DNA of 64,000 bases from Eubacteriales bacterium (GTDB lineage Bacteria > Bacillota > Clostridia > Oscillospirales > CAG-382), in NCBI GenBank assembly GCA_045589515.1, contig JAZNPH010000025.1, positions 4,034-68,033 on the forward strand, read 5' to 3'. Every line of letters begins with the position of its first letter. Within the stretch, counting starts at the first letter, position 1. The position numbers and the translations under genes are program-made. Under the pieces are notes generated by a model. It saw only the letters and a program-made list of their open reading frames with translations, was not told the DNA's origin and did not search any database. Shown piece after piece: positions 36,332 through 60,872 of this stretch.

Positions 36332-36365
36332 AAAAAAAGAAGGCAACTTTTGCGTTGCCTTCTTT
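36332..36365 (-). terminator. Rho-independent terminator closing the 24-kb surface-protein operon
   Basis: There is a 12-bp stem, AAAGAAGGCAAC (36336-36347) / GTTGCCTTCTTT (36354-36365). It is followed on the minus strand by a run of seven T. It lies 8 nt after the stop of the dockerin gene. Confidence 0.75.
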
Positions 36366-36372
36366 GAAAAAA

Positions 36373-38556
36373 TCAATTTTCGGGAGTCCACTTGCCAAGC
36401 AAGTAGGATTTCAGCTTGAAATAGTCGGTTTTATTGACCTTGCCGTTGCCGTCGATATCGCTTCTGGCAAACATGCCGTCGTCAAAGGCGATATCTTTGC
36501 CCAGCAGGTAGGACTTCAGCTTGAAGTAGTCTGTCTTGGCGGCCTTTCCATCGCCGTCCACGTCACCAAAGACAAACGCGGGCTCTTCCTGCTCGAAATA
36601 GTAGCAAGCGAACATCCAAGCGTCATCCAGATTACCGCCGACCCAGCCGTCTTCACCATACCAATCCTGATACTTACCAACGCTTTGGAAAATGATCATC
36701 AGGTCCTCAGTCAGGGGATAATATGCGGTCTCATCGGTACATGCGAGGTATTCTCCGAATGCTTCGTTGTAGTTAATCTTCTGCACAACGGTATCGCCAT
36801 CATAGATTACATCCTTCAACTGCCCGTATTCCATTGCACCGGCTAGGCTCATGAGAGGATCGCTGAGGCAAGCATACAGGAGAGGACCGTTGGCGTTGCC
36901 AAGGTGATAATAACCATCCACACCGAGAACGGCCACGTCACAGACACCGTCAAAGGTATCTACATACAGAAGGGCATCTTCATCCCCCTCAAAGCTGAAG
37001 GGTACAGGGGTGAACTTGTTTTCATAGATGGTCCACGGAATCTCAACAATGACGATTTCTTCCTTTTCGATGGTGAGGAAGATTCCGGGCTCATCGGAAA
37101 TGGCCGCTACCAGAATGGACTGTCCAACATCCTTGCATTCCCATTCGAAGGTGCTTTCCGTAACGGTTTCTGCAGAGGGCTCGATGGTGACCCACATACC
37201 GTTGTAGCTGACCAGAGCAACATAGCCGTTGGCGGCAGTAAAGGTATACTTGCCGACCTCAGTGGGCTCAAAGTAATACACGGTATACATATACTCGGGA
37301 TCAAGCTCGCACTCGTTATCCCCAACGGAAAGAACGACATCGGACCAGAAGTAGCCTTCCGTTTTTCCATCGCCGGTGGGAGGGGTTACGGGCTCATCGG
37401 GAACGTCTACGGGAGGATCTACGGGATCTTCGCCTTCACCGGGGGTAAAGGTTAAGCTCCAATGCAAGGTTCCGGCAGGGTTATTCCACATATCTGCAGG
37501 GTCGTAGGTGGCAACCATCACGGTCACAACGTCGCCTGCGGATACGGAATGGCTCTCGGTGGAGACAACAGTCTCGTCATCACTCCAATGGGTATCGCCG
37601 TAGACAAAAGTCTCGTCGGCACGCAAAATATTCAAGTTATACTGCCAGCTTTCATCCAGCATGGCAACGGATACGGTCCCGTTTGCGGCGGCGGTCCAAG
37701 TGTAGTGATACCCCTGGTTACCCGCTTCCAGCACAGCGGTATACTCCCCTGCGGTAATTTCCTGAGGGAAATTCATAGAGCCAATGGCATCAAAGGATGC
37801 ATTGACGGAGACAGAGCCGGCAGGATTGCTCCACATATTGTTGGGATCGTAGGTGCTGACAAACAGAACGACCTCGTCGCCTGCAGACACTTTTACAGAC
37901 TCGTAGTTAACGGGAATCTCGTCGTCGCTCCAATGGATATCGCCATAGATGCCTGCGGTCACGTTGTTTAAAAAGTAAAGCCAGCCAACGGGCATATACT
38001 CTGCGTCAAACGCGCTGAGGTTGGCGGTGAAGTAACCGTCGGAAGTAGCGGTCCAGGAATAGTAGTAGCCCTCGTTGCCCGCATCAAGGTCCTTCGTTAA
38101 AAATGCGCCGAGATTGCCGAACCAATCCTTTTCCAAAAGGATCTCTTCGGGATTATCCATGGTTCCTGCACCTGCGAGAGCGCCTGCGGCCAGCTTCAGA
38201 TACACCACCACGTCGGTCTCGCCGCTGTTATAGACGGAGAAGACGTCGGAGAAGGCGTTCATGGTAAACTCTGCGGTGCCGTCTGCGCCGGGATACACGC
38301 TCTGTCTGCCATACTGCAGGAAATAGCCGTCGCTTGTTGCGTGGCCGACGGTGACGGTGGAGTTGTCACATTGATCCACCTTCACGTAAGCCTCTGTTCC
38401 GGGAGCAACGGTAATGGGCAGAGGGGTCATGCTGTCTGCATACAACAGGTAGGGATTCTCGTAAGTGCCGAGATCAGCATTCTCGGCGAGAACTGCCATA
38501 GGCGTGACAGTCAGAATCACTGCCATAAGCAGGCTAAGAAGTTTCTTCATAGTCAT
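36373..38556 (-). CDS. Secreted multi-domain protein with C-terminal type I dockerin
   Basis: It has a type I signal peptide (TPMAVLA-EN) and several beta-sandwich repeats, including an internal duplication. It carries the shared DGYYH...YPLTEDL...CYY module. The C-terminus has two EF-hand-like dockerin segments, DVDGDGKAAKTDYFKLKSYLLG and DIDGNGKVNKTDYFKLKSYLLG. Confidence 0.7.
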   Translation of the reverse strand: MTMKKLLSLLMAVILTVTPMAVLAENADLGTYENPYLLYADSMTPLPITVAPGTEAYVKVDQCDNSTVTVGHATSDGYFLQYGRQSVYPGADGTAEFTMNAFSDVFSVYNSGETDVVVYLKLAAGALAGAGTMDNPEEILLEKDWFGNLGAFLTKDLDAGNEGYYYSWTATSDGYFTANLSAFDAEYMPVGWLYFLNNVTAGIYGDIHWSDDEIPVNYESVKVSAGDEVVLFVSTYDPNNMWSNPAGSVSVNASFDAIGSMNFPQEITAGEYTAVLEAGNQGYHYTWTAAANGTVSVAMLDESWQYNLNILRADETFVYGDTHWSDDETVVSTESHSVSAGDVVTVMVATYDPADMWNNPAGTLHWSLTFTPGEGEDPVDPPVDVPDEPVTPPTGDGKTEGYFWSDVVLSVGDNECELDPEYMYTVYYFEPTEVGKYTFTAANGYVALVSYNGMWVTIEPSAETVTESTFEWECKDVGQSILVAAISDEPGIFLTIEKEEIVIVEIPWTIYENKFTPVPFSFEGDEDALLYVDTFDGVCDVAVLGVDGYYHLGNANGPLLYACLSDPLMSLAGAMEYGQLKDVIYDGDTVVQKINYNEAFGEYLACTDETAYYPLTEDLMIIFQSVGKYQDWYGEDGWVGGNLDDAWMFACYYFEQEEPAFVFGDVDGDGKAAKTDYFKLKSYLLGKDIAFDDGMFARSDIDGNGKVNKTDYFKLKSYLLGKWTPEN
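36391..36576 (-). other. Dockerin module (two 22-residue Ca-binding repeats)
   Basis: This covers aa 661-722 of the 727-aa protein. The D.D.DG.....D loop followed by an amphipathic helix occurs twice. The duplication is also visible at the DNA level (...CAGCTTGAAATAGTC... / ...CAGCTTGAAGTAGTC...). Confidence 0.7.
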
Positions 38557-38586: not shown

Positions 38587-39639
38587 TTAAGAGAGATATT
38601 CTGCGCACCAGGTAATCACGGTAGCGGGATACTTCCCTCTTCTGTTGGGAACTGCGCCCATATTGATGGAAAGATCATCCCCAGCTTCCACGGCAACATC
38701 AAAGTAGATCCTGCCCTGTTCGTCAACGGTATCCACGCCGTCGGAGCTAACCTGTACGTAACTGCGGTTATTAGTGACTCTGATAAAGCTGTCCACAGTC
38801 GCGGAAAGATAGAATCGAACGGTGCCATCCTTTACCGCTGTATGGCGATAGAAATAACCGATGTCATTTCCAGCTTCCAGAGAAACTACCGTATCTTCGG
38901 CCATAGACTCCTTAAGCTCGGCATTGCCCATAGAACCCAAGGGGATGGTGAACTTCAAGACAAAAGACTGCTCAGAGGTGCCGTTATTGCCTATTTCAAA
39001 GCCGATAGGAGCGCTGGCAAGCGCTCTTTCCACACGAAGAGTAAGAACTCCGTCAACGGGAGTATAGGTTACGCCCTCGTAGATCACGTAAACGTCGGCA
39101 GACTCGATGGTAAGATCCATGCCACCAACACGGTAAATACCAAAGAAGGCAGTGGTGCCGGGTTGGATCTTCACGGTGGTCACGGGGGTGTTCTCGTGGG
39201 GAATATACAGGTAGGGATCTTCCTCGGTGCCGGAGCCATCGGGAATAATCTCTTCGGGTTCAGAAGGATCTTCGGAGGGCTCATCCGGCTCAGAAGGCTC
39301 TACGGGCTCTTCGGAAGACTCATCGGGCTCGGAGGGCGCCTCGGAAGGCTCTTCAGAAGGTTCTTCGGAGGGTTCTTCGGAAGGCTCCACAGAAGGCTCC
39401 TCGGAGGGTTCTTCGGAAGACTCCACAGAGGGCTCCTCGGAGGGTTCTTCGGAAGATTCTTCAACAGAAACGGCCTCGGAAGAGATAGCTTCCGAAGAGG
39501 CATCGGCACTTTCTTCCTTGGATTCAACACCCGTGCTCACCTCGGGAGGAAGCTCCTCGGAGCAACCGACCAAAGCGAGAGAAAGCAGGCAAGTCAAGAG
39601 CAAGGAAGCGGCAAGACAAAGTAACAGTTTCTTATTCAT
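38587..39639 (-). CDS. Lipoprotein with long acidic (P-S-E-E)n linker and a beta-sandwich domain
   Basis: It has the signal/lipobox LSLALVG-CSEE. Residues 59-130 are almost pure SEEP/SEPD repeats. The C-terminal domain begins GTEEDPYLYIP, resembling the GTYENPYLLY / GTMDNPEEIL domain starts of the dockerin protein. Confidence 0.6.
   Translation of the reverse strand: MNKKLLLCLAASLLLTCLLSLALVGCSEELPPEVSTGVESKEESADASSEAISSEAVSVEESSEEPSEEPSVESSEEPSEEPSVEPSEEPSEEPSEEPSEAPSEPDESSEEPVEPSEPDEPSEDPSEPEEIIPDGSGTEEDPYLYIPHENTPVTTVKIQPGTTAFFGIYRVGGMDLTIESADVYVIYEGVTYTPVDGVLTLRVERALASAPIGFEIGNNGTSEQSFVLKFTIPLGSMGNAELKESMAEDTVVSLEAGNDIGYFYRHTAVKDGTVRFYLSATVDSFIRVTNNRSYVQVSSDGVDTVDEQGRIYFDVAVEAGDDLSINMGAVPNRRGKYPATVITWCAEYLS
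39250..39465 (-). repeat. In-frame tandem repeat encoding acidic Pro-Ser-Glu low-complexity linker
   Basis: GAAGGCTCTTC / GGAGGGTTCTTC-type 12-nt units reiterate. The translation is EEPSEEPSVESSEEPSEEPSVEPSEEPSEEPSEEPSEAPSEPDESSEEPVEPSEPDEPSEDPSEPEE. Confidence 0.7.
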
Positions 39640-39641
39640 AA

Positions 39642-40082
39642 TCAGTTACCCTTGGTCAAGGTCAGGGTGTATTCGGTAGCGCCGTATTCCAGATGGATCT
39701 CGGCCTCGCCCTCGTAGGTATACCCCTCAGGGAGCGTCATCACAGACAGTTTATAACCGTCGGTGATCTCAACGTTGAAAACAGCGACGCCGTCCTCGCC
39801 GCTCATAGAGGGCATGCAGGAATCCTTGCAGATCTGCACCATAGCGCCGGAGACGGGATTGCCGTCCTGATCCACTACGGTGACAGAGAACTTGGGAGCT
39901 TCGGGCACAGAGGTCTCGGAAGACTCGTTCTCCACAGCCTCGGAAGAGGTGTTTGCTACGCTCTCCGCAGAAGATTCTGCGGGAGCAGAGGTCTCGTTCT
40001 GCTCGCCGCAAGCCACCAAGCAAAGAAGCATGGTCAGACCCAAGACAAGAGCAAGAAGTCTTTTGGTGAGTTTCATATTCAT
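39642..40082 (-). CDS. Small lipoprotein consisting of an acidic linker plus one carboxypeptidase-regulatory-like beta-sandwich domain
   Basis: It has the lipobox CLVA-CGEQ and a Ser/Glu-rich linker. This is followed by FSVTVVDQDGNPVSGAMVQICKDS....GEDGVAVFNV..GYKLSV..LPEGY, the pattern of CarboxypepD_reg/prealbumin-like folds. Confidence 0.55.
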   Translation of the reverse strand: MNMKLTKRLLALVLGLTMLLCLVACGEQNETSAPAESSAESVANTSSEAVENESSETSVPEAPKFSVTVVDQDGNPVSGAMVQICKDSCMPSMSGEDGVAVFNVEITDGYKLSVMTLPEGYTYEGEAEIHLEYGATEYTLTLTKGN

Positions 40083-40092
40083 TTTCTCCTTT

Positions 40093-40977
40093 TCAGGGAT
40101 TCATTTCTTCGATGCTTTGGTAGGTTCTTTGCACATACTCGTCGGAAGTAACGTAAGCAAACAGACTGGAGAAGGTTTCCGCATCCGTCACAGCGCCGAT
40201 ATGCACCAGACAGATCATTCCATAACGGTCAATGACAACCGTTGTAGGATAAGCTCGGAGATTCATAGCAGTTTGCCAATACAACTCCTCGGAAGCGACG
40301 GGAAATGTCAATCCCATTTGCTCCGCATATGAGGAAACTGTGGCGTCGGTGCCATCGTAAGGATTGATGGCAATGACCTCCAGACTGTCTTTATACTGCA
40401 AATATGCTTGTTCCAGGTAAGGAAATTCCATACGGCAAGGGCCGCAACCGATGAACCAGAAGTTCAGCACGACAGCTTTCCTCTCTTTCAGAAGATCTGC
40501 GATGGAAAGCTGTGTGCCATCGGTACAGGTAACGCTGAGATTGGGAACAATGCTCCCGACACGTAGGGAAAGCGTGGTAAGGTCTTCCACTTCATAAGGA
40601 ACTGCTTGAACGGTGATCGTGGTTTCCGTTCCGGTAACGGGGTAATACGATTCACCGCAATATCCGGGATCTTCCGGATACAGAACCGCAACGTAAGAAT
40701 CGGATAACGGCGCACGGAAAGTGAAATTCCCTTCCCTGTCCGTCATAGCGGCATACACAAGATCGGTGAGGGAAGAATCCTCGTAAACCTTGACCAAAAC
40801 GTCGCCAAACTTCATTCCGCCTTCGGTTTGGAAGGTGAGCGTATAGTCTGCGAAATCGGATTCCTTGGAGGGCGCGGTGCTTTCTTCGAGAGCAGGATCA
40901 CACCCGACAAAGGAAAGGATCGCGATCATCAGCAGCCAAGAAAGTGCTGTGCGTAAATATTTCTTCTTATTCCACAT
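40093..40977 (-). CDS. TlpA/ResA-like thiol-disulfide oxidoreductase lipoprotein (CarboxypepD_reg-like domain plus thioredoxin fold, CGPC)
   Basis: It has the lipobox SFVG-CDP and a beta-sandwich (YTLTFQTEGGMKFGDVLVKVYED...DREGNFTF). The thioredoxin fold reads KAVVLNFWFIGCGPCRMEFPYLEQAY...YPTTVVIDRYG. I verified the CGPC codons at 40435-40446. Confidence 0.8.
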   Translation of the reverse strand: MWNKKKYLRTALSWLLMIAILSFVGCDPALEESTAPSKESDFADYTLTFQTEGGMKFGDVLVKVYEDSSLTDLVYAAMTDREGNFTFRAPLSDSYVAVLYPEDPGYCGESYYPVTGTETTITVQAVPYEVEDLTTLSLRVGSIVPNLSVTCTDGTQLSIADLLKERKAVVLNFWFIGCGPCRMEFPYLEQAYLQYKDSLEVIAINPYDGTDATVSSYAEQMGLTFPVASEELYWQTAMNLRAYPTTVVIDRYGMICLVHIGAVTDAETFSSLFAYVTSDEYVQRTYQSIEEMNP

Positions 40978-42226
40978 AGCAACACATCAACAGCCACGCG
41001 ATATCATGGTTGATACCGGGCTCGGGGTTGCCGTCCATATCCACGAAAAGGTAGGCTCGGCTTTCGGGATCCCACCAGCCCTGGTAATCACCATGCTGCT
41101 GTACAATATACTTCAGATCCTCGGTCAGGGGGTATACCCCCATGGCTTCGTCGGCACAAGCAATGTATTCCGCGAGACACTGGGAATAGGATTCCTTCTT
41201 TGTAAATTTCCCTTCCTCATCGTAGAAATACTTGGTAACGCCGGTGTGTTCCAGGATGGTCTGATAGGAATCCATATACTCGCTGTCCTCGGAAAGGCGC
41301 ATAAGCACCAGGGGACCGTCTGCGGAATCCAGATGGTAGAAGCCGTCGGTTTCATTGTACACCAAGGTGTATTCCTTAGTAAAATCAAATTCCTTTAAGG
41401 TCGCTCCTGCGGGAAGTTGATAAGCTTCGGGAGCTTTCACGGCCTCGTAAACTGTCCAGGGCTCATCCTCGATGGTTTTGATGGGATCGCCGATACGGCG
41501 GATACCAAAGATGCAAGAGGTCTCGATATCTGCATCCACACCAAGCACCAGCACGTTGGTGCCACCTTCGCCGCTTCCGATCATGGAAGCTTTGATGGAT
41601 ACGGTGAACACGTTATCGGTGACGGTTGCAACACTGTTTTCCATCACGTAATGCGGAGAACCGTAGTAGCCGACGGTTGCTTTGGTCTCTCCGATCAGAG
41701 AGAACTCAAAGTTACCGGCAACGGTGGGAGTAAACAGGAAGTAGTTCCGAACACCGGGGGTGAGCTCTACGTAGGTGGTTCCGATCCCTAAAGGATACGT
41801 CTCGATATCAGAAGAACTTACGGTAATCGCTTGAGACTCCGCAGTGATCCTGCCGCAGAGAGTCACTTCCGCAGAAGTGACCTCGGCAGTTACAGTGGTT
41901 TTTTCGTAGTAATGGTTCTCTTCTCCGTCGGAGAACGCAAGAGAGATTTCGTATTCCCCGGCAGTAAGGCTTTTGCTTGCAACGCCGTTTGCATCGCAAG
42001 GCTGCATGGCAACACGCTCACCGTTCTGCAAGAACTGCACGGCCACACCTGCTGTGCAGGGATCGCCGAACGCATCCTTAACGGTGACGGTGTAGGTAAG
42101 CTCCCCGGCAGGGGCAGAAGATTCCGGCTGAGAAGTGCCCTCCCCAGAGGAAGAGCAGGATCCCAGAAGCATTGCTACCGCCAGCAAGGCGGCTAAAATG
42201 TAGGTTTTCAAGTTCTTATTGATCAT
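40967..42226 (-). CDS. Modular lipoprotein (CarboxypepD_reg-like domain, beta-sandwich, shared C-terminal DGFYH...YPLTEDL...CCY module)
   Basis: It has the lipobox LLGS-CSSS and YTVTVKDAFGDPCTAGVAVQFLQNGERV...DANGVAS. Its C-terminal 165 aa are paralogous to the dockerin protein and to the 927-aa protein. Confidence 0.6.
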   Translation of the reverse strand: MINKNLKTYILAALLAVAMLLGSCSSSGEGTSQPESSAPAGELTYTVTVKDAFGDPCTAGVAVQFLQNGERVAMQPCDANGVASKSLTAGEYEISLAFSDGEENHYYEKTTVTAEVTSAEVTLCGRITAESQAITVSSSDIETYPLGIGTTYVELTPGVRNYFLFTPTVAGNFEFSLIGETKATVGYYGSPHYVMENSVATVTDNVFTVSIKASMIGSGEGGTNVLVLGVDADIETSCIFGIRRIGDPIKTIEDEPWTVYEAVKAPEAYQLPAGATLKEFDFTKEYTLVYNETDGFYHLDSADGPLVLMRLSEDSEYMDSYQTILEHTGVTKYFYDEEGKFTKKESYSQCLAEYIACADEAMGVYPLTEDLKYIVQQHGDYQGWWDPESRAYLFVDMDGNPEPGINHDIAWLLMCCYVE

Positions 42227-42241
42227 GGCATTTACCCGTCA

Positions 42242-45025
42242 TCAATCATTGGAGCCCAGATAATCGTAGTAGTAGCAGAGCTTCAACCAGGAATTCTCAA
42301 CACCTGCGAAGGTGTATTTATCCATGAGAAGCTGCAAAATCTCAGCAAGCCGCTGATCTACTACCACGCATCCGTTACGCTCGGTATTTTCGGAATCGTC
42401 AATCTTATCAAGATAGGAACGCACTTCCTCGGTAAGATCCCCGCCCTTGCCGTGGTATCTGCCGGCAAAGACATCCTCCAACTGGTAGTTGATTGCGTTT
42501 TGATCGTACTCATCTCCCCATTTTTCTCTGAGATAAGCATCGGTCTTTTCGATATCGTTATCGTTTTGCTTCAGGTAGGAAAGAATCTCGGCATCGGTCT
42601 CGGATTTACTGAAATCGAAGCCGCCCATCTCGATCATCTCAGTGATAGAGTGGCTGAATACGCTGGTCATAGAGGTGAAATCCGCATAGATCAGACTTCC
42701 GTCCGCAGAATCGTACCAATAACCGTCTTTCAGCTCGGGCTTAATGCCGCCGGTAATGATATCGTACATGGTGTCGCCGGTGGCGTCGCCGTCGTAGGTG
42801 AAGTAACCGGGAGCGGCGGCACGGAAGAGCCAAAGCTCTTCTGCGATATACTCAACGTCGTAGTAAATAACGCCGGTAGCGTAAACATCCCAGAAAGCCA
42901 TATTGATATAGTAGGGCTTGCCGGCTTCCATATAGTAGACCATGGAAACGTTAACGGTATCTGTATACATACGTTCGTCATGCTCGTAGGTATAAATAAT
43001 ATCGCCGTTGCTGTCAAAGATCCAGGAGTCGATGCCGTCTTTGTACTCGCTTCTGGAGGTAAAACGGTATACCCCGGATCTTTCGGGAATAAATTCCGCA
43101 AACATACCTCTGGGAATGATCGCTCTGTCGTAGTAGAAATAGTTGGTCTCGACGCCCTTGCCCAGGGTTGCGTCCAATGCGCTTTCGGGGCAAAGACCGA
43201 TGATGGGATCCTGAAGCTGAGTAGCGGTGGGACCGTATGCCACGAAGTACTTACAGATCTTCAACCATTCGTTTTCGGTGCCGTCGAAGCCTGCCACCTC
43301 GGCAACCTGCTTGAGCATTTCAGCAAGCTCTTTGTTTACGGTGCAAATGCCGTTCAAGGAAGCGTTGGAAGCATAGGAGAAGTACTTCACCATGTTTTTC
43401 CCTTCCTTGTCGTAGAGGCTGACGCCGTCCTTATCTGCCAGACCCTCGTAGACGATCTGGTAAACGGACATTTCCTCGGAGAAGGGAGTGTAGCCCATAA
43501 GGTCTGCCAGAAGAAGGGGGCCGTCCGCCTTGCCTACATGGTAGTAGCCGTCCTTTTCGTTGAAGACGATATCCACATAAGAATAGGTCTCGCCGTCCTC
43601 AGAAGTGCCGGCAGGGCGGGGCAAGTAAGTATCCACGTCGATCTCGGAAGCATCTACAGCGCGGAAATTGTTGATATAAACGGTGTCGTCCCCCTCGGAG
43701 GTGTCGCTATCCTTGACGAAGCAAAGAGCGATCTCGTAGGTGCCATCTTCTTCCGCAACGCAGGGGTAGCAAGACTGCCAGGTCTCGGTCTCTCCTACGC
43801 CGGAGATCTGGAACACGTCCTCGTCGTTGACGATGACGTACAAAATATCGCAAAGGCGCTCGGAGGAGATGAGGTAGTCGAAGCCAACCGCCTGTCCCTT
43901 CTTCAGAGTGACGTCGGCGTAGAGGATGGCGTAGGAGGAATCGATGCCGGTGTTGGAGGCGTAGAGCGCCTTCTTACCGTTCTTTTCCGTAGCGATGAAG
44001 GGCCAGATGTACTGGGCGTTTTCATCCTCGGTCTCGGGACGATAGGTAACTTGGATATCGCCCTTGTTGATGAGAGCAGAAATGTTCTCGGAGGAATCCA
44101 TGGTGTAGTTGGGAACCACCTGAGTCACCAGGTCGCCGATGCCGCCTACACAGACCTTCTGCTTATAAACGTCCGCAAGGAAGTGATCGAAGGCGGACAG
44201 GAAGGGACGCTTGCTGGTAATGGCACCTGCCTCCACTACGCTGATCAGCCCATAACGGTCAATGAACACAGAGGTGGGGTAGCCGGTAACGGAAAAGGTG
44301 TTGGCCCAGGAGGAAGGACAAGCGGCCATGGGAAAATCCAGACCGTGCTCAGCCTTGAAATTCTTAACGGCAGCTTCACCGTCCAGGGGATCCAACGCGA
44401 TGATCTCGATCTGATCCTTGTACTCAGCGTACAACTCGTTCATCAGAGGGAACTCTTCAAGACACCAGGTACAAGTGGTGTACCAGAAGTTCAGGATCAC
44501 CAGCTTTTTGGTCTCCAGAACCTTGGAAAGGGTGAGTTCTTCCCCATCGGAGGTGGTAACGGTGAAATCATACATGATATCGCCCATCCCCAAGGATGCG
44601 GAGGAAAGCTCCTCGTCGGTAACCAAAGAGGAGGTTAGGACGATGCTTGCGGAGGTGCCGGAGAAGCCGTAGTAGCTGTCAACGGAGTAACCCTTTGCAA
44701 CGCCCGTGAGGACAATGGCGTAGTCCTTGCTCTGGGGCAGGGTAAAGGATACGTCGCCGTTTACATCGGTCTTGGCAAAGTCCACCATGTCGGCAAGGGA
44801 ACCGTCTGCGTAGATATATACGTCGGTTTCGGACATTGCCATTCCGCCGGCCGTCTCCACGTGAACGGTATAAGTCGCGGAGCCGCCTGCAGGCGCGCTC
44901 TCCTCGGAGCTTGTGTCGCTGGTGGTTCCGCTGTCATCCGAGCAGGATGCCAACAGAGGGAGACAGATCGCCAAAAGCAGAAGTAAGGCGATCATACCAT
45001 GCTTTCTGTAAGTATTTCTTTTCAT
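42242..45025 (-). CDS. Large modular lipoprotein with TlpA-like thioredoxin fold (CTWC)
   Basis: It has the lipobox LLAS-CSDD and a CarboxypepD_reg-like domain (YTVHVETAGGMAMSETDVYIYADG...DVNGDVSF). The thioredoxin fold reads KLVILNFWYTTCTWCLEEFPLMNELY...GYPTSVFIDRYG, and I verified the CTWC codons at 44462-44473. A jelly-roll-like region and two copies of the shared module follow. Confidence 0.75.
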   Translation of the reverse strand: MKRNTYRKHGMIALLLLLAICLPLLASCSDDSGTTSDTSSEESAPAGGSATYTVHVETAGGMAMSETDVYIYADGSLADMVDFAKTDVNGDVSFTLPQSKDYAIVLTGVAKGYSVDSYYGFSGTSASIVLTSSLVTDEELSSASLGMGDIMYDFTVTTSDGEELTLSKVLETKKLVILNFWYTTCTWCLEEFPLMNELYAEYKDQIEIIALDPLDGEAAVKNFKAEHGLDFPMAACPSSWANTFSVTGYPTSVFIDRYGLISVVEAGAITSKRPFLSAFDHFLADVYKQKVCVGGIGDLVTQVVPNYTMDSSENISALINKGDIQVTYRPETEDENAQYIWPFIATEKNGKKALYASNTGIDSSYAILYADVTLKKGQAVGFDYLISSERLCDILYVIVNDEDVFQISGVGETETWQSCYPCVAEEDGTYEIALCFVKDSDTSEGDDTVYINNFRAVDASEIDVDTYLPRPAGTSEDGETYSYVDIVFNEKDGYYHVGKADGPLLLADLMGYTPFSEEMSVYQIVYEGLADKDGVSLYDKEGKNMVKYFSYASNASLNGICTVNKELAEMLKQVAEVAGFDGTENEWLKICKYFVAYGPTATQLQDPIIGLCPESALDATLGKGVETNYFYYDRAIIPRGMFAEFIPERSGVYRFTSRSEYKDGIDSWIFDSNGDIIYTYEHDERMYTDTVNVSMVYYMEAGKPYYINMAFWDVYATGVIYYDVEYIAEELWLFRAAAPGYFTYDGDATGDTMYDIITGGIKPELKDGYWYDSADGSLIYADFTSMTSVFSHSITEMIEMGGFDFSKSETDAEILSYLKQNDNDIEKTDAYLREKWGDEYDQNAINYQLEDVFAGRYHGKGGDLTEEVRSYLDKIDDSENTERNGCVVVDQRLAEILQLLMDKYTFAGVENSWLKLCYYYDYLGSND

Positions 45026-45058: not shown

Positions 45059-45304
45059 TCAAACGAGCCAAAAGATCAAAGCCACGATGAGAAAGGCGAC
45101 TGCAAGGAAGCCCACGGCAACAAGGGTGGGTAAAAGCATCATACGTACTGCGCTCCAATAGGTGCGCCAGATGTCGCCGACAGAGGACGTGGTACCGCTC
45201 CCCCAGCGGCTTTTCCCCGCGGAAACGCCTGACATATCCGCAATGGTCCTGCCGTCGTCGATATAATGCACTTTTTCCTTTTTGGACTTGTCTTTCTTCA
45301 TCAT
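45059..45304 (-). CDS. Small tail-anchored membrane protein, unknown function
   Basis: The 81-aa protein has a Lys-rich N-terminus (MMKKDKSKKEK) and a C-terminal TM helix (LLPTLVAVGFLAVAFLIVALIFWLV). It is packed 13 nt after the ABC ATPase gene and 33 nt before the 927-aa lipoprotein gene. Confidence 0.45.
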   Translation of the reverse strand: MMKKDKSKKEKVHYIDDGRTIADMSGVSAGKSRWGSGTTSSVGDIWRTYWSAVRMMLLPTLVAVGFLAVAFLIVALIFWLV

Positions 45305-45317
45305 GAACGCTTTTTCC

Positions 45318-46319
45318 TTACTCGTTCAGCAAGTGGCAGGCGGCGCAATGGCCGTTGCCGTAATCTTTGTACTCCGGCGTTACCTCTTTGCAAATATCCT
45401 TTGCATGGGGGCAACGGGTGTGGAAGCGGCAACCCTTGGGCGGGTTAGCGGGAGACGGGATGTCACCACTTAGGATGATACGGTTCATTTTCACGTCGGG
45501 ATCGGGATAAGGAATGGCAGAGAACAAGGCTTGGGTGTAGGGGTGCAAGGGGTTTGCGAAGATATCCTCCTTGGTACCGAATTCCACCATGGAGCCAAGA
45601 TACATGACGCCGATCTTATCGGATATGAACTTGACCACGGAAAGGTCGTGGGAATTGAACACGTAGGTGAGATCCATCTCCTGCTGGAGACGCTTCAACA
45701 GATTGATGATCTGCGCCTGAATAGAAACATCCAGAGCAGATACGGGCTCGTCACAGATGACAAGCTTGGGGTTGACGGAAAGGGCGCGGGCGATGCAAAT
45801 ACGCTGGCGCTGGCCGCCGGAGAATTCGTGGGGGTAGCGCTCGTAATAGTAGGAACGCAGACCGCACTTATCCATCAGATCCAGAACGTACTCCTTTACC
45901 TGATCCTTGGGAACAATATTATGTACCTCCACAGGCTCGGAAAGGATGCCGCCCACGGTGCTTCTGGGTGGCAGAGAGGAGTAGGGGTCCTGGAAAATGA
46001 TCTGCATCTTCTTGCGGATCTCCCGCATTTGGGAAGAAGTATAGTTGGTAATATCCTGCCCTTCAAAGAAGATCTGACCGGAGGTGGGCTGGTGGAGCTT
46101 AAGAATGGCTCTGCCCAAGGTGGTCTTGCCGCAGCCGGATTCGCCAACGATGCCTAAGGTCTCCCCTGCTTTCAGAGAGAAGGACACATCGTCCACGGCG
46201 ATGAGCTCGCGAGTGACCTTACCGGTGATGGTCTTTTTGAGAGGGAAGCACTTACGCAGGTGATGTACCTCCAAAAGGCTGTCACTTGCGGGGGCATTGA
46301 TCTTCTGTTCTTCAGCCAT
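45318..46319 (-). CDS. Oligopeptide/dipeptide ABC transporter ATP-binding protein (OppF/DppF-type)
   Basis: It has Walker A GESGCGKTT, the signature LSGGQRQRICIARAL and Walker B LVICDEPVSALD. The Opp-type C-terminal extension has Cys motifs (CRFHTRCPHAKDIC...CAACH). Confidence 0.9.
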   Translation of the reverse strand: MAEEQKINAPASDSLLEVHHLRKCFPLKKTITGKVTRELIAVDDVSFSLKAGETLGIVGESGCGKTTLGRAILKLHQPTSGQIFFEGQDITNYTSSQMREIRKKMQIIFQDPYSSLPPRSTVGGILSEPVEVHNIVPKDQVKEYVLDLMDKCGLRSYYYERYPHEFSGGQRQRICIARALSVNPKLVICDEPVSALDVSIQAQIINLLKRLQQEMDLTYVFNSHDLSVVKFISDKIGVMYLGSMVEFGTKEDIFANPLHPYTQALFSAIPYPDPDVKMNRIILSGDIPSPANPPKGCRFHTRCPHAKDICKEVTPEYKDYGNGHCAACHLLNE

Positions 46320-47460
46320 TGTTCTGTTCCTCCCCGTATAAGTGACATGCTACGTAATGGGTGGGGCTGACCCGGATCATCCCCGGATACTCCCCTGCGC
46401 ACTTTTTGGTGCAGGAGGAGCATCTCTCACGGAAGTAGCAATAGTTGGGCATATTGATGGGGTTGGGCACGTTACCGGGGATGTTGAACAGCGTGTCGCT
46501 GTCGGAATCCAGGGTGGGCTTGGATTTCTGCAAGCCGATGGTATAGGGGTGCATGGGATTATGGAAGATCTCTTGCACAGTGCCCTGCTCGATGACTCTG
46601 CCTGCGTACATGACCACCACGTAATCCGCCATCTCAGCAATAATGCCAAGATCGTGGGTGATGAGCATGATGGAGCCGTCGATCTTCTCCTTCAGATCAC
46701 GGAGCAGATCCAAGATCTGCGCCTGAATGGTTACGTCCAGAGCGGTGGTGGGTTCGTCGGCAATGATGAGGCGGGGATCCGCCGCGAGAGCCATGGAGAT
46801 CATCACACGCTGGCGCATACCGCCGGAAAGCTCGTGAGGGAAGGAATTATATACACGCTCGGGGATGGCAATGCCCACCAGATTCAGCATCTCGATGGAA
46901 CGGGCTTTCGCCGTCTCCTTAGTGGCCTTGGGGTTGTTGATGAAGGTGACCTCGTCAAGCTGCTGACCAATGGTGAACACGGGGTTCAAAGAGGTCATGG
47001 GCTCCTGGAAGATCATGGCAATCTGGTTGCCGCGGATCTTGTGAATGTCCCGCATGGGCATTTTTGCCACGTCGTAGACCTTCTCGGTGCCGTCGGCTTC
47101 TTTTGCGTTAAAGCGGATGGAGCCGGAATAGATCTGACCTGCGGGGCCCTGGATCAAACGCATAACGGACATACTGGTCACGGACTTGCCGCAACCGGAC
47201 TCCCCTACCACGCCTACGGTAGCATGCTTGGGAATATTGAAGGAAACGCCGTTGACGGCCTTAACCACGCCCTGCTCGGTGAAAAAATAGGTGTGGAGGT
47301 CATCGATCTCCAGAATGTTCGAATCGTCCTTCATTTCGGTGAGGTATTCCGATTCGGGGGCTTTACGATTCTTGTAGGCCTCCAGCTTTTTGATGATCTT
47401 TTTGTTTTCCTTGGCAATGGCGCGGACTTCCTTGCCCGAAAGGTGATTGGTTTTGCTCAT
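46312..47460 (-). CDS. Oligopeptide/dipeptide ABC transporter ATP-binding protein (OppD/DppD-type)
   Basis: It has Walker [10 protein letters not shown], the signature [15 protein letters not shown] and Walker [12 protein letters not shown]. The C-terminal Cys-rich Opp extension reads [14 protein letters not shown]...VACH. There is a Lys-rich N-terminal extension of about 45 aa. Confidence 0.9.
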
Positions 47461-47463
47461 AGC

Positions 47464-48507
47464 TTATCTCCTCGCTTTCGGGTCAAGGGCATCTCTCAGA
47501 CCGTCTCCCACAAAGTTAAAGCCCAACACGGCAATGACGATGCAAATACCTGCGGGAACCCAGACGTTGAGGTGGTTCTGAAGAATGTCCTGGTTGGTGG
47601 AAATGATGTTGATCATGGTACCCCAAGCAGCGTAGGGCGCCTTGACACCCAGGTTCAGGTAGGACAGCGTTGCCTCGTAGAGAATCATACTACCCAGGCT
47701 CAAGCTCATTTGCACGATGAGCTGGGGCATGACGTTGGGGACCAGGTGCTTAAAGATCTTACGGGGTGCGGAGTAGCCCATGGCTTCTGCCGCCACCATG
47801 TATTCCTGCTCGCGGAGAGACAGGATCTGACCGCGGACAAGTCGCGCGGTGCCGGGCCAGGAAATGAAGGTGAGGTAGATCATCAAGAGGTAAATGCGGT
47901 ATTTCGCATCAATGCCGGAGGCATCCAGGATGGTACTGATGATCAGCAGGATCGGGATACCGGGGAGGCAGATCAACACGTCGCATACACGCATGATGAT
48001 GTTATCCACTACCCCGCCGAAGAAACCTGCGATGCCGCCCATGAATACGCCGAGAATGGTGATCAGAAATACGGCGATAAAGCTGACGATGAGGGAGATT
48101 CTGCCGCCGTACATCAGACGGACGAAGATATCGTAGCCCTCGTTGTCGGTGCCGAGGATGTGCTCTGCGGAGGGAGGTGCCAGGAAGTTGTCCTTAAGAC
48201 TCTTCTCGGTGGTCTGATGGAGGGTGTATTCCACGCCATTGACGGTATAGGTGGTCTCCGCGGTGGCGTATTCCGTCTTACCGCTTTCGTCCAGCTCGAT
48301 CTCACCCCACTGAGTATAGATCAGAGGACCCACGAAACTGAACAGAAACAGCCCTACGATCATAACAAGACCGATGATGCTCAGCTTGGAGCGGAAGAAA
48401 CGACGAACCACCATACGGGTGGGAGACATTAAACGGACGTTTTGATCCAAAGGAGTGTCGGTATCTTCTTTCGCTTCGGGAGTATTGTTTTTCAGTTGTT
48501 CTTCCAC
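47464..48507 (-). CDS. ABC transporter permease (OppC/DppC-type)
   Basis: The BPD-transporter fold has the EAA loop (EQEYMVAAEAMGYSAPRKIFKHLVPN) and an OppC-type N-terminal segment. Confidence 0.9.
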   Translation of the reverse strand: MEEQLKNNTPEAKEDTDTPLDQNVRLMSPTRMVVRRFFRSKLSIIGLVMIVGLFLFSFVGPLIYTQWGEIELDESGKTEYATAETTYTVNGVEYTLHQTTEKSLKDNFLAPPSAEHILGTDNEGYDIFVRLMYGGRISLIVSFIAVFLITILGVFMGGIAGFFGGVVDNIIMRVCDVLICLPGIPILLIISTILDASGIDAKYRIYLLMIYLTFISWPGTARLVRGQILSLREQEYMVAAEAMGYSAPRKIFKHLVPNVMPQLIVQMSLSLGSMILYEATLSYLNLGVKAPYAAWGTMINIISTNQDILQNHLNVWVPAGICIVIAVLGFNFVGDGLRDALDPKARR

Positions 48508-48519
48508 AAAGATACCTCC

Positions 48520-49512
48520 TTACTCCAATTTGACTCTGGGGTCTACGATGCCGTACATCAGGTCGGCCAGCAATACGCCGATGACGCTGAGCAACGCAAG
48601 GAACATATTATAACCCATGATAAAGGGGATATCGCCGCGGTTCATGGCGTCCAGGGCGATATTACCGATACCGGGCAGGTTGAACACCTGCTCCGTGATG
48701 ATGGCACCGGAGAACAGGGAGGGCAGAAGCCCTGCCAGAGAGGTGACCATGGGAATCAGAGTGTTGCGGAAGGCGTGCTTGTTGATAACAACGCTTTCCT
48801 TGAGACCCTTTGCACGAGCGGTACGGATGTAGTCGGAGTTCATAACCTCCAACATATTGGTTCTGGTCATACGCATTCTGGCACCGATGGACAGGATCAC
48901 AATGGTGAGAATGGGGATGAACATATGCCGCGCATAGTCCAACAGGAGGGCGAGCCCTGCCTGGGACACGGTAGCGTCCAGCAAGCCCGAAGCCGGGAAC
49001 CATCCCAGCTTCAGGGCAAGGAAATCCTTGAGCACCTGCCCGAAGAAGAAAGAGGGCAGGGAGATGCCGATCATGACCAACACGGTTACCACGTAGTCGC
49101 GGATGCTGTACTGGTGGGTGGCGGCGGTGATCCCAAGGGGGATCGCGATGAGGAATTCGAAAATGGTGGCAATCAAGGCGATGATAAAGGACACGCCCAT
49201 ATGCTCGAAGATAACGTCTGCGACAGGAATGCCGTGGACGAAGCTGGTGCCCAGGTCAAAGGTGGCAAGAGCGCCAAGCCAGCTGAAGTATCCCTTCAGG
49301 ATTCCCATAAAGCTGTTGTCCCCCAGCCCGTACATTTCGTACATGGCGTTCACCGTTTCCTCGCTGACCGTTGCGCCGCCCTGGTTGATGGCGTCGATCT
49401 TGCTCTGGATAAAATCCACGGGCATGAGTCGGATCAGGAAGTAGATGATCATGGAGACGCCCAGCAGAATGAGAACTGCCATGGCAAGTCTTTTAATGAT
49501 GTATTTCAGCAT
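48520..49512 (-). CDS. ABC transporter permease (OppB/DppB-type)
   Basis: It begins MLKYIIKRL......LGVS.I.F.L..L.P.D and has the EAA loop (SDYIRTARAKGLKESVVINKHAFRN). Confidence 0.9.
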   Translation of the reverse strand: MLKYIIKRLAMAVLILLGVSMIIYFLIRLMPVDFIQSKIDAINQGGATVSEETVNAMYEMYGLGDNSFMGILKGYFSWLGALATFDLGTSFVHGIPVADVIFEHMGVSFIIALIATIFEFLIAIPLGITAATHQYSIRDYVVTVLVMIGISLPSFFFGQVLKDFLALKLGWFPASGLLDATVSQAGLALLLDYARHMFIPILTIVILSIGARMRMTRTNMLEVMNSDYIRTARAKGLKESVVINKHAFRNTLIPMVTSLAGLLPSLFSGAIITEQVFNLPGIGNIALDAMNRGDIPFIMGYNMFLALLSVIGVLLADLMYGIVDPRVKLE

Positions 49513-49526
49513 GGGTCACACCCGCT

Positions 49527-52118
49527 TTACTGAGCAAATTCGATTTCCCAAATACGGTCCAAGGGAGAGGAATAGGGATTCATCTCAGCCTCGGTAGGAA
49601 GGCTGGAGGAAGCGATGACGTTGGAGTTGTAGGCGTAGAGAACGCTTCTCTGGTATACGGGGAGCTCGATGGCCAGATCAAGAACGTGCTCCATAGCGCT
49701 CTGGTACAGCTGAGTACGCTTGCCCTGATCGTTGGTCTCACGAGCGGCGTCGATGATCTCGCTGAGCTCGTTGAGGATCTTGGTCTCCTCTGCACTGCCG
49801 CTGGTCTTCAGGTGGTTATAGCCCCAAGCCAGAGTGCTGGTTGCGGTGGAATCCTTGTGGTAAACCTGATACATATCGGGATCAAGAGCGGAGGACCAAG
49901 CTGCTGCCCAAACCTCCAGAGAACCGGTGTTGATCTTGGTAAGAGCCTGGGTATCGCAAACAACCTCTACGTCCCAGCCCATATCGTTCAACAGAGCGGC
50001 GGCATCACGGAACACCTTATAGGTGGGGTGATCCTGCAAGCTGGAGCCTGCGATGGTGAACTTCACGGAAAGCCGAGAGTCGCCTGCACTGACGCCTGCG
50101 GCCTGCATATACTTCTCGATGTTGGCAACAGCGATATCCTGGTTCCAGGTACCCAGAGGAGGATAGTCAAAGTTGTTGTCGTTGGCGGCCGCACCCTTGG
50201 GGTAAGCCCAGCTTACCTTGGACATGGGCCAGAAGATCTGTGCCGCGGTACCTGCACGGTAGTAGTCAAGTGCAAGGGAGGTGTTCATGGCGCACATGAT
50301 GGCCTTACGCAGGTTGATATCGTTAATCTTCGCCGCATTGACACCGATGTAACCGTAGCCCAGCTGATCGGTGGTGAGGGTCACCATGCCCTTGGAAGCC
50401 AGAGCCTCCAGCTTCTCGTAGTTGTTGGTGGTAAGAGAGGGAGAGATGTAGTGAACGTTGCCCTCCTCCAAAGCGGCAATGGCGTTGGCGGAAGAAACGA
50501 TCTGATAACGGATCTTGGGGATCTTGGCATTCTCGATGCCCTCGCCAACGGTGTTAAAGTTTTCGTTGGCCTTGAAGTATACCACGTTGTTGGAATAGAA
50601 CTGGCTTTCGCCGGGGTTATCGTCGTTTGCGGAGTTGGTCACCTTGTAAGCACCTGCACCCATGGGGAGCTTGATGTTACGGGTGGACTGGATCACGTCG
50701 GTCATGAAGTCGAAGCTTGCGAATTCAACGCCGAACTTGTTGTTGGCAATATCCATTGCCACAGAGCTGCCCTCGCCGTAGTAGTGCTGGGGAGCAACGG
50801 TCAGTGCGAAGTTCCAGATGGCCTTGGGGTCAACACCGTCGATGGTGATCTGCAGAACGTCGTACTCGGACGCGTTGGTAACGGTGCCGTCGGCATTGTG
50901 GCCGGAAGCAACGGTGTACTGGGTGCCGTTTACGGTGATGGTGGAGCCTGCCTTATCGGTATGACCCAAAGAAACGATACCGGAGATATGGTCAACTGCA
51001 AGAGAGCCGTCTTCAGAAACGTTCTCGTGGAGGATGACCTCCTTTGCCTTGGCGGTGAACTCGGTGTTAAGCGTGTTGGCGGTTGCCCAATACTGCAGAA
51101 TGATGTTCAGCTCTCTTGCGATCTTATCGTTGTAGATGTAGTCGATAGCAGCTTCCTTGGTGGTGATTGAGGAAGGATATGCAGGGGTCATCTTCTCGAT
51201 GGTGGTACGGTCGATCTTACCGTCTGCACCCTCGGCGTACTCAACTTCCACGTAGCCCTCGGAATACATGAAGCAGAAGATCTCGTTCTTGAATTCCTCG
51301 TAGTTGCTGAAGGGCTTGTCGATGTAGGATTCCTGAGCGGAGAGATAGTCGGTCTCCAGCTCTTCCTTGAACAGCTTCAGAGCGTACTCGTAGTCAGCCA
51401 GCAGGTTCTTGTTGGAGACCTCTGCGGGGTTGGTGGAGATAGCGGTCTTATAGCCGTTGCTCACAGAGTGAGCGTTGATGGCAGCCTTCATTGCCTCGTA
51501 GCCCACCTCTTTGGTGGAGGAAGCTTTTACCTGAGAGTTGAACAGGTTGATCAGCTCATTCAGTCTTGCGGTGGCTCTGGAAGCGGCCTGAGAGGTGATC
51601 TGGCTGTCGCTGTCATCGGAGGAAGAGCCGACGGTCTGGGTTCTGTACTCAGCAAGGCCCAGAATGTCGGTGGAATACAGGGTGTTGGAGCCGGTGTAAA
51701 CAGGATCCAGATATACGTAGTAGTTAAACAGAACGTCCTCCATGGTCAGAGGGTGGCCGTCGGAGAATTTGATGCCGTTCTTAAGGACGAAGGTGTAGGT
51801 CACGGTACCGTCGCTGTTTTCAACGATGTCGTAATCCTTGGTAACCACAGCCTCGTTTTCGCCGTAGGCAACCTGCACTTCCCCGTTGACATACTTGGAT
51901 GCAAGCATGCCGATCTGGGTCATGGCAACGATGGTGCCGTCATTGGCGGAGGTGGAGAAGAACGGATTGAACAGACCGTCAAGCTGTTCCGTCATGATAA
52001 CGAAAGCGTCTACGCCGGCGCCGCCGTTATCGGAACAACCTGTAAATGCAGTCAGGATGCCCATGCAAAGAACAACGCACAGGACCAGTGAAAGGAGTCT
52101 CTTTTTCATTTTGTTCAT
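49527..52118 (-). CDS. ABC transporter substrate-binding lipoprotein, family 5 (peptide/nickel type), unusually large (863 aa)
   Basis: It has the lipobox AFTG-CSDN and family-5 SBP features (...FVLK.GIKFSDG.P.T.EDV.F....). These are spread over about 860 aa with long insertions. The RBS AGGAAGG precedes the start. Confidence 0.8.
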   Translation of the reverse strand: MNKMKKRLLSLVLCVVLCMGILTAFTGCSDNGGAGVDAFVIMTEQLDGLFNPFFSTSANDGTIVAMTQIGMLASKYVNGEVQVAYGENEAVVTKDYDIVENSDGTVTYTFVLKNGIKFSDGHPLTMEDVLFNYYVYLDPVYTGSNTLYSTDILGLAEYRTQTVGSSSDDSDSQITSQAASRATARLNELINLFNSQVKASSTKEVGYEAMKAAINAHSVSNGYKTAISTNPAEVSNKNLLADYEYALKLFKEELETDYLSAQESYIDKPFSNYEEFKNEIFCFMYSEGYVEVEYAEGADGKIDRTTIEKMTPAYPSSITTKEAAIDYIYNDKIARELNIILQYWATANTLNTEFTAKAKEVILHENVSEDGSLAVDHISGIVSLGHTDKAGSTITVNGTQYTVASGHNADGTVTNASEYDVLQITIDGVDPKAIWNFALTVAPQHYYGEGSSVAMDIANNKFGVEFASFDFMTDVIQSTRNIKLPMGAGAYKVTNSANDDNPGESQFYSNNVVYFKANENFNTVGEGIENAKIPKIRYQIVSSANAIAALEEGNVHYISPSLTTNNYEKLEALASKGMVTLTTDQLGYGYIGVNAAKINDINLRKAIMCAMNTSLALDYYRAGTAAQIFWPMSKVSWAYPKGAAANDNNFDYPPLGTWNQDIAVANIEKYMQAAGVSAGDSRLSVKFTIAGSSLQDHPTYKVFRDAAALLNDMGWDVEVVCDTQALTKINTGSLEVWAAAWSSALDPDMYQVYHKDSTATSTLAWGYNHLKTSGSAEETKILNELSEIIDAARETNDQGKRTQLYQSAMEHVLDLAIELPVYQRSVLYAYNSNVIASSSLPTEAEMNPYSSPLDRIWEIEFAQ

Positions 52119-60673: not shown

Positions 60674-60811
60674 CGGGACCTCTTTTCTGATTTGGGCATA
60701 ATACGACACATACATATTCATTATATATTACAATATTTTTTCAAAAAAAGCAATAGCATTATCACATTTTTTTGATATTTAATTTTTTGTTCATCTTTTT
60801 TCGTCAAAACA

Positions 60812-60840
60812 TTTACTTTCGCGAGAACTTGTGGTATACT
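60812..60840 (+). promoter_or_regulatory. Sigma-A promoter with extended -10 for the CxxC-membrane-protein / polyferredoxin-thioredoxin operon
   Basis: TTTACT (60812-60817), a 17-nt spacer, then TGG-TATACT (the hexamer is 60835-60840, with TG at -15/-14). It lies inside the AT-rich divergent region and invalidates the GTG 60831 start of the listed ORF. Confidence 0.5.
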
Positions 60841-60872
60841 CTTTGTTACGAATGAACGATGGGAGCTTCCTT

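Follow-up and report, generated by a model that had tools for sequence, protein, structure and literature searches.

Two thioredoxin lipoproteins of uncultured gut Clostridia belong to a conserved surface module that recurs beside a cell-envelope protease

What are two surface thioredoxins for when none of the usual partners is encoded beside them? The question is raised by a 64,000-nucleotide stretch of contig JAZNPH010000025.1 from a Eubacteriales bacterium (hereafter, the window), which encodes two TlpA-like thioredoxin lipoproteins, of 294 and 927 amino acids (aa), with different active-site dipeptides. Extracellular thioredoxin lipoproteins of Gram-positive bacteria act in cytochrome maturation, formation of the spore cortex and repair of methionine sulfoxide, and obtain their electrons via CcdA or DsbD. 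The two open reading frames (ORFs) examined here supply the catalytic core of a surface module that is conserved in uncultured gut Clostridia and behind which a dockerin protein is often encoded. Their assignment, from sequence, as outward-facing, lipid-anchored thiol-disulfide oxidoreductases of the ResA/TlpA type is well supported, and so is their membership in the gene cluster; what we infer is how the electrons travel, in which direction, and on which substrates the enzymes act. The reading that we favor, with a probability of about 0.45, is that the module would reduce disulfides at the cell surface in a manner coupled to proteolysis, with electrons possibly supplied by a membrane polyferredoxin-thioredoxin fusion protein instead of CcdA.

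The two genes and their active-site codons are located as follows:

40093..40977, minus strand: 294-aa thioredoxin lipoprotein, beta-sandwich plus ResA-like domain
40435..40446, minus strand: CGPC active-site codons of the 294-aa protein (aa 178-181)
42242..45025, minus strand: 927-aa thioredoxin lipoprotein, recognized by its signal peptide, domains and family conservation
44462..44473, minus strand: CTWC active-site codons of the 927-aa protein (aa 185-188)

The positions of both motifs given in the original prediction, which was made by reading the sequence alone, are exact: the reverse complement of 40435-40446 is TGCGGCCCTTGC, translated as CGPC in the context VLNFWFIGCGPCRMEFPYLE, and that of 44462-44473 is TGTACCTGGTGT, translated as CTWC in the context ILNFWYTTCTWCLEEFPLMN. 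Profile searches and, for the 927-aa protein, structure prediction, which the same prediction had recommended, recover a ResA-like domain in both proteins (aa ~137-271 of the 294-aa protein and aa ~140-290 of the 927-aa protein). Both match the Pfam families Redoxin (57.4 and 42.3 bits for the two proteins; cut-off 26.6) and AhpC-TSA (56.4 and 53.7 bits; cut-off 26), with expectation values (E) from 8e-11 to 2e-15. Crystal structures of ResA are the best solved relatives by sequence, at E 1e-17 for the 294-aa protein (4nmu) and 2e-18 for the 927-aa protein; by fold, too, ResA comes out best, with the model of the 927-aa protein aligned to 4nmu by Foldseek at a template-modelling (TM) score of 0.81 and a root-mean-square deviation of 1.4-2.2 A. 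The cis-Pro region that had been noted as common to the two proteins is borne out by this alignment, which covers the stretches AYPTTVVIDRYG in the small protein and GYPTSVFIDRYG in the large one and places YPT(T/S) of both opposite the "PT" of ResA. Both proteins also retain the equivalent of ResA Glu80 (E184 in the small protein and E191 in the large one), located three residues after the second cysteine as part of an "EFP" motif; E191, F192 and P193 are invariant in 45 sequences. A peroxiredoxin assignment was considered and rejected: AhpC-TSA is a generic match for this fold, and the CxxC together with the cis-Pro loop aligns residue for residue with ResA.

Sec signal peptides with a lipobox are predicted in both proteins and end at C26 (SFVG-C26) and C28 (LLAS-C28), as expected from the lipid anchoring proposed originally. 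A beta-sandwich precedes the thioredoxin domain in each; in the 927-aa protein, AlphaFold2 models it as an immunoglobulin (Ig)-like sandwich with strands at aa 49-132 and a predicted local distance difference test (pLDDT) score of about 90. The sandwich itself is thus real, but its earlier description as carboxypeptidase-regulatory-like corresponds to sub-threshold Pfam matches only (Big_1 at E 0.004; CarboxypepD_reg is matched in the neighboring 146-aa protein only). The 294-aa protein is 38% identical over 253 aa to aa 41-290 of the 927-aa protein, and the N-terminal halves of the two are paralogous. The full-length model of the 927-aa protein has a mean pLDDT of 77.7, and the fold search with it matched only the thioredoxin domain.

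Does the similarity to ResA extend to function? In the classical role of ResA and StoA, the two lipoproteins would take part in cytochrome c maturation or in building the endospore cortex, with their partners encoded elsewhere in the genome. Apart from ResA being the best solved relative, this would fit an organism that is a spore former, with YabQ encoded in the window and Spo0A and SpoIVB-like genes in related loci. The resemblance to the Bacillus proteins comprises the CxxC followed by E-F-P, the cis-Pro loop and an extracytoplasmic membrane tether; the tether, however, is a transmembrane helix in Bacillus and a lipid anchor with an Ig-like stalk here, and the CEPC of ResA is replaced by C(S/T)WC in the large protein. 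The scores fall far short of the NCBIfam cut-offs, both for ResA (NF002854; 85.6 and 86.6 bits against 170) and for StoA (NF041202; 35.2 and 38.2 bits against 210). No Pfam domain of CcdA/DsbD, ResB or ResC/CcsA was found in any window ORF scanned, in agreement with the original observation that cytochrome-maturation partners are not encoded nearby, and resB, resC and ccdA are likewise missing among the recurrent gene families of 84 related loci, onto which we mapped the window proteins by tblastn, including 10-kb flanks (the species concerned show 54-95% identity). Moreover, ResA and StoA have nothing comparable to the conserved ~640-aa extension of binding-type domains or to the surrounding module, and, to our knowledge, gut Oscillospirales generally lack c-type cytochromes. 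The classical role accordingly appears very improbable, and the conclusion that the two lipoproteins are not part of a cytochrome-maturation operon is well supported.

The two proteins represent sizable families. The large protein has >1,500 homologs, the best 120 of which are full length, share 65-93% identity with the query and come from metagenome-assembled genomes of Ruminococcaceae/Clostridia, where they are annotated merely as "TlpA family protein disulfide reductase" or "redoxin domain-containing protein"; the small protein has 268 homologs. Because both active-site cysteines are conserved across these families (in 81 of 83 large and 60 of 62 small orthologs), a chance match is excluded. 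In a scan of one genome per species, relatives were detected in 334 species genomes; the 80 of these that were listed are all uncultured Clostridia from herbivore guts, most of them named for hindgut samples of sheep, goat, buffalo or deer. When the C-terminal 637 aa of the large protein were searched library-wide, 680 clusters matched; among the best 150, 129 carry an N-terminal thioredoxin domain, most of the remainder being fragments, and among the thioredoxin-domain matches of distant representatives, 127 of 136 have both cysteines. Both the fusion of the thioredoxin to the C-terminal region and the redox site are thus under selection.

The residues between the two cysteines are another matter. 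Among the 120 closest homologs of the large protein, the motif is CSWC in 99, CTWC in 19 and CGPC in 2, and the small-protein family adheres to CxPC (CGPC, 69; CQPC, 27; CDPC, 12). In the wider family of the large protein, the dipeptides scatter (CGPC, 19; CSWC, 17; CTYC, 17; CTWC, 14; CSAC, 13; CSPC, 10; and others), with more than 25 different ones among distant members, and the large protein of six related loci has CGPC itself. An obligatory CGPC-CxWC relay was therefore rejected as a defining feature of the system, and the relay between thioredoxins of different potential that had been suggested does not hold in that capacity; the particular difference in potential between the two proteins is typical of the clade but not universal.

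If not a fixed redox pair, what is conserved? The two thioredoxin genes belong to a lipoprotein module of five to six genes with shared, uncharacterized domains, which the original prediction had overlooked. The remaining genes of the module and the hairpin that follows it are:

40967..42226, minus strand: 419-aa lipoprotein with Ig-like beta-sandwiches and one "Y" domain (in 79/84 loci)
39642..40082, minus strand: 146-aa lipoprotein with a single beta-sandwich and C85-x3-C89 (in 75/84 loci)
38587..39639, minus strand: 350-aa lipoprotein with an acidic Ser/Glu/Pro linker and an "X" domain (in 72/84 loci)
36373..38556, minus strand: 727-aa secreted protein that has the X domain twice, the Y domain once and a type I dockerin at its C terminus (relatives in 33/84 loci)
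36336..36365, minus strand: intrinsic-terminator-like hairpin, a 12-bp stem followed by a T run, at the end of the minus-strand gene string

The order 927-419-294-146-350 is found in 72 to 84 of the 84 loci, that is, nearly wherever the contig allows. The 419-aa gene is always located between the two thioredoxin genes, and its end is overlapped by the start of the 294-aa gene by 11 bp. In the window, the module is the last part of a longer string: from 60721 down to 36373, every gene is on the minus strand, the gaps measure 11 to 33 bp, and the order is S8 subtilase (2,411 aa)-435-863 (binding protein)-two permeases-two ATPases-81-927-419-294-146-350-727. Between the S8 and dockerin genes, no convincing terminator was found; of the terminator-like hairpins in the region, the strongest comes immediately after the dockerin gene. 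The upstream part of the string consists of:

53486..60721, minus strand: 2,411-aa cell-envelope subtilase, by Pfam domains and solved-structure relatives
52150..53457, minus strand: 435-aa lipoprotein of unknown function that accompanies the protease
45318..52118, minus strand: Opp-type ATP-binding cassette (ABC) importer as a whole, by domain families
49527-52118, minus strand: 863-aa family-5 substrate-binding lipoprotein of this importer
48520-49512 and 47464-48507, minus strand: the two Opp-type permeases
46312-47460 and 45318-46319, minus strand: the two Opp-type ATPases
45059..45304, minus strand: 81-aa single-pass membrane protein, between oppF and the 927-aa gene

Above the Pfam cut-offs, the subtilase contains Peptidase_S8, PA (as an insert) and fn3_5, along with seven BspA-type leucine-rich-repeat stretches and a C-terminal hydrophobic membrane anchor; among solved structures, it is closest to those of C5a peptidase, SpyCEP and cell-envelope proteinases (E 3e-66 to 6e-53). 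By these sequence features, the 2,411-aa protein is assigned to the S8 cell-envelope proteinases of the PrtP/ScpA/SpyCEP type. It shares with PrtP of lactic acid bacteria and with the streptococcal ScpA and SpyCEP the large anchored S8 architecture, the PA insert and the Fn3-like domain, and, as in the proteolytic system of lactic acid bacteria, it is encoded together with an oligopeptide ABC importer; unlike in those systems, extracellular thioredoxins are associated with it and the protease bears BspA-type leucine-rich repeats. The subtilase gene is always followed by that of a 430-440-aa lipoprotein of unknown function. The best solved relative of the binding protein is the oligopeptide binder AppA (E 4e-12); at 863 aa, it is about 300 aa longer than typical OppA/AppA.

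The original prediction had pointed to the protease and the peptide importer as neighbors, and comparison of the 84 loci separates the two. About 43 loci have the subtilase gene next to the module, and they show at least three gene orders. One is that of the window (S8-435-substrate-binding protein-Opp-81-module; 20 loci). In another, the module is followed by the convergent fusion gene and the gene of its CXXC partner and then by a divergent S8 gene; the fusion gene is present in this arrangement in 28 loci, 21 of which, those with a sufficiently long flank, also show S8. In the third, the module is followed directly by the S8 and 435-aa genes (2 loci). Thus, the protease is not a coincidental neighbor, and chance adjacency was rejected on account of the three gene orders. 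For the importer, chance adjacency was rejected only in part: it is present in the window, and it lies upstream of the module in about 20 of the 84 loci, which weakens any general link; it is an add-on in one lineage. The 81-aa membrane protein is conserved only where the Opp operon is present (21 loci).

A location outside any cytochrome-maturation context, which had been presented as the peculiarity of these lipoproteins, holds for this locus but is not unusual as such: in pneumococcus, Etrx1 and Etrx2, two surface thioredoxin lipoproteins with differing CXXC motifs and potentials of -191 and -282 mV, serve MsrAB2 (PMC3914529). The CcdA1/2-Etrx1/2-MsrAB2 system of Streptococcus pneumoniae is the closest precedent for the system described here (PMC3914529), in that both comprise two Gram-positive surface lipoproteins of the ResA/TlpA type with differing CXXC dipeptides, presumably differing potentials and a function other than cytochrome maturation. 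By analogy, the present pair might be devoted to antioxidant repair, keeping surface proteins reduced or feeding an Msr or peroxidase during exposure to oxygen in the gut, and structures of Etrx1/Etrx2 are indeed among the solved relatives (4hqs, 4hqz and 2yp6; E 2e-9 to 5e-12). We consider this decidedly unlikely: neither the window nor the recurrent families of the 84 loci include msrA, msrB, peroxiredoxin or ccdA genes, the ResA-type Glu that is kept here is Ser in the Etrx proteins, and the conserved partners are the protease and proteins with binding modules. In place of a nearby CcdA or Msr, there are the polyferredoxin-thioredoxin fusion, the subtilase and, in some lineages, Opp, and one of the two thioredoxins is fused to ~640 aa of binding-type domains.

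From where, then, could the electrons come? Under the reading that we favor, surface disulfide reduction coupled to proteolysis, the candidate source is encoded on the far side of the protease gene, by a gene pair divergent from it:

60831..61619, plus strand: 262-aa membrane protein with five predicted helices and a C-terminal CXXC domain, by NF040920
61632..63128, plus strand: 498-aa fusion of a NapH/NosR-type module and a thioredoxin domain (WCTPC), by Pfam and synteny

The 498-aa protein, annotated by NCBI just as "4Fe-4S binding protein", joins a NapH/NosR-type membrane module, which carries CX3CP motifs and a pair of [4Fe-4S] motifs, to one more transmembrane helix, an acidic linker and a ResA-like WCTPC domain. 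Fer4_5 is matched at 53.7 bits (cut-off 22), and TIGR02163 (NapH) at 85 bits, below its cut-off of 213; CX3CP and the two C-terminal [4Fe-4S] motifs are present in 119 of 120 homologs, and all 19 cysteines are conserved in 26 of 26 orthologs. Hydropathy and charge bias predict the iron-sulfur motifs to be inside and the thioredoxin domain outside. Some relatives, 640-690 aa long, contain two thioredoxin domains. The 262-aa partner contains a CD1871A-type domain (NF040920, 36.1 bits; cut-off 32), predicted to face outward, with a CXXC that is conserved in 27 of 27 sequences. The WCTPC protein had been named in the original prediction as a possible redox partner of the two lipoproteins, and its gene co-localizes with the module in 28 of the 84 loci; in loci of the window type, it is found just past the 10-kb flank, on the same contig and divergent from S8, an orientation that it always has in the window and the related loci examined. 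One locus (L086) has all three units grouped around a fusion gene with two thioredoxin domains. Unbiased clustering of all ORFs in the 84 loci revealed no other recurrent membrane redox protein and no recurrent CcdA-like neighbor. Since the linkage among the module, the fusion pair and the protease survives rearrangement, we argue for a functional connection among them.

NapH/NosR/RdhC-type membrane modules feed electrons to extracytoplasmic enzymes (PMC5928378). The role proposed for the fusion resembles that of DsbD, CcdA and ScsB, that is, passing cytoplasmic reducing power to an outward thioredoxin domain, which is fused as in DsbD; it differs from these proteins, to which it has no homology, in the NapH/NosR/RdhC-type CX3CP and the two [4Fe-4S] clusters, which suggest a donor of the ferredoxin type rather than a thioredoxin. 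Ferredoxin has a potential of about -400 mV, and thiol/disulfide couples lie between -120 and -270 mV. With ferredoxin-level donors, outward reduction would be thermodynamically favorable.

What the large thioredoxin could act on is a question for its C-terminal region. The additional ~640 aa are present as originally described and, from aa 291 to aa 927, match no Pfam family. The region comprises a MAM/CBM-like jelly roll with a W.SCYPC motif, two "Y" domains and a second beta-sandwich; modeled separately, it reached a pLDDT of 84.6 and a predicted TM score of 0.71, and the fold search returned generic jelly-roll, MAM, CBM and adhesin matches, including the gingipain adhesin domain, with low TM-scores. 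The Y domain is an uncharacterized alpha/beta domain of ~150-170 aa with the signature DGYYH..GPLL.A...C.V..LA..L...W.K.C.Y; two copies are encoded within 42242-43650 in the 927-aa protein, and one each in the 419-aa and 727-aa proteins, whereas the X domain is common to the 350-aa and 727-aa proteins. For X and Y, nothing usable was obtained from Pfam (E up to 5), NCBIfam or a profile search of PDB sequences. The type I dockerin of the 727-aa protein (36373-36570, minus strand) implies a cohesin-bearing scaffold elsewhere in the genome.

Several cysteines outside the active site are conserved in the large protein: the probable structural pairs C419/C435 in the jelly roll and C561/C591 and C886/C917 in the Y domains, as well as C236 within the thioredoxin domain and C292 shortly behind it. 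The jelly roll also contains a second CxxC-like motif, W(K/Q)SCYPC (43760-43771, minus strand; aa 419-422). C419 is kept in 83 of 83 orthologs and C422 in only 52 of 83, so that pairing of C419 with C435 is likelier than a second redox site. The C85-KDS-C89 (CX3C) of the 146-aa lipoprotein, which 64 of 76 relatives share, could be a redox site, a metal site or a client of the neighboring thioredoxins.

These cysteines bring up the possibility of self-maturation, with the thioredoxins, and the C(S/T)WC domain especially, acting as a dedicated oxidase or isomerase that folds or proof-reads the exported cysteine-containing proteins of the cluster itself and does not attack foreign substrates. The structural-looking pairs and the two additional cysteines of the large protein could be its clients, as could the conserved CX3C of the 146-aa lipoprotein; the thioredoxin domain is encoded in cis with the pair-bearing domains in 129 of 150 family representatives, and oxidases and isomerases typically have an aromatic residue as the second of the dipeptide. 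On the other side, three thioredoxins (the two lipoproteins and the membrane fusion) are much machinery for a few proteins, the small protein has kept CxPC, a strongly reducing type, the bacteria in question are anaerobes of the gut, and the ferredoxin-type clusters of the membrane protein would, by their potentials, favor an outward flow of electrons. All considered, self-maturation seems unlikely.

The favored reading, surface disulfide reduction coupled to proteolysis, can be spelled out as a sequence of steps. By their sequences, all proteins of the module are exported lipoproteins, in which Ig-like stalks and acidic linkers keep the thioredoxin and adhesin-like modules off the membrane. 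To judge from synteny, the NapH-like module would pass electrons, carried by the two cytoplasmic [4Fe-4S] clusters and with the assistance of the CXXC partner, to its own exofacial WCTPC domain, replacing CcdA/DsbD. The WCTPC domain would then reduce the small CxPC lipoprotein, the large C(S/T)WC lipoprotein or both, and the large protein might grip disulfide-bonded extracellular proteins via its jelly-roll and Y modules and open their disulfides. The adjacent subtilase, again judging from synteny, would cut the loosened substrate, and lineages resembling that of the window could then import the peptides via the adjacent Opp-type importer. That reduction readies disulfide-bonded proteins for proteolysis and uptake is suggested by the nature of the partners, namely, such a protease and an AppA-like binder. 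The more specific proposal, that the NapH/NosR-type fusion and the CD1871A-type partner form a ferredoxin-driven system for the export of reducing power, independent of CcdA/DsbD, which powers the opening of disulfides at the surface ahead of protease digestion of dietary or host proteins, we regard as rather doubtful.

A number of observations weigh against this reading. The assignment of function rests on gene neighborhood, and in about 12 loci neither the subtilase nor the fusion gene is found within 10 kb of the module; only about one locus in four has the Opp operon. An aromatic residue before the second cysteine is more like an oxidase or isomerase than a reductant (DsbA, CPHC; DsbC, CGYC; glutaredoxin, CPYC), and the dipeptide of the large protein is not fixed in the wider family. 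Substrate binding by the C-terminal region is a guess because its beta-sandwiches have only generic matches, and the alpha/beta Y domains produced none in the fold search with the C-terminal model. The ligand of the binding protein is uncertain because the protein is long and only weakly OppA/AppA-like (89.8 bits, with the NCBIfam cut-off at 650); the ligands of family-5 binding proteins include nickel and sugars as well. Finally, the CX3CP motif has no assigned role in NapH, NosR and RdhC (PMC5928378).

There is a partial parallel for reduction ahead of proteolysis in keratinolytic consortia, where the action of a disulfide reductase or sulfitolysis precedes the attack of S8 keratinases (PMC7775373, PMC6906142). 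In both cases, disulfide reduction would open cross-linked protein to a subtilisin-type protease, but the reductases of keratinolysis are poorly defined and do not constitute a surface thioredoxin-lipoprotein module beside the protease. The enzyme class and, from pneumococcus, the two-lipoprotein surface thioredoxin system are already known. We found no paper on the present system in the literature on CD1871A, TlpA in Ruminococcaceae and polyferredoxin-thioredoxin fusions; three features appear to be undescribed, namely, the conserved architecture of the module, a thioredoxin joined to ~640 aa of binding-type domains, and the repeated association with both a cell-envelope protease and, replacing CcdA, a polyferredoxin-thioredoxin fusion. 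The same type of enzyme is thus seen in a widespread cluster of uncultured lineages with other partners: a giant protease, adhesin-like modules and an iron-sulfur-thioredoxin fusion. Should the favored reading be correct, reductive pre-treatment of disulfide-rich proteins, for example, plant protease inhibitors, storage proteins, mucins or immunoglobulins, would be an organized trait of gut anaerobes, and there would be a second, ferredoxin-linked route by which reducing equivalents cross the membrane to thiol-disulfide enzymes; for the CX3CP module of NapH, NosR and RdhC, thiol chemistry would offer a tractable read-out.

The rest of the window is taken up by housekeeping genes (relA, recJ, ftsY, smc, rnc, topA, dprA and alr) and the YabQ spore gene, with no nap or mau genes in the window. 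Unrelated to the cluster is a 707-aa protein encoded at 29030-31153 on the minus strand, with DUF4855, a sub-threshold F5/8 type C-like domain and Big_9.

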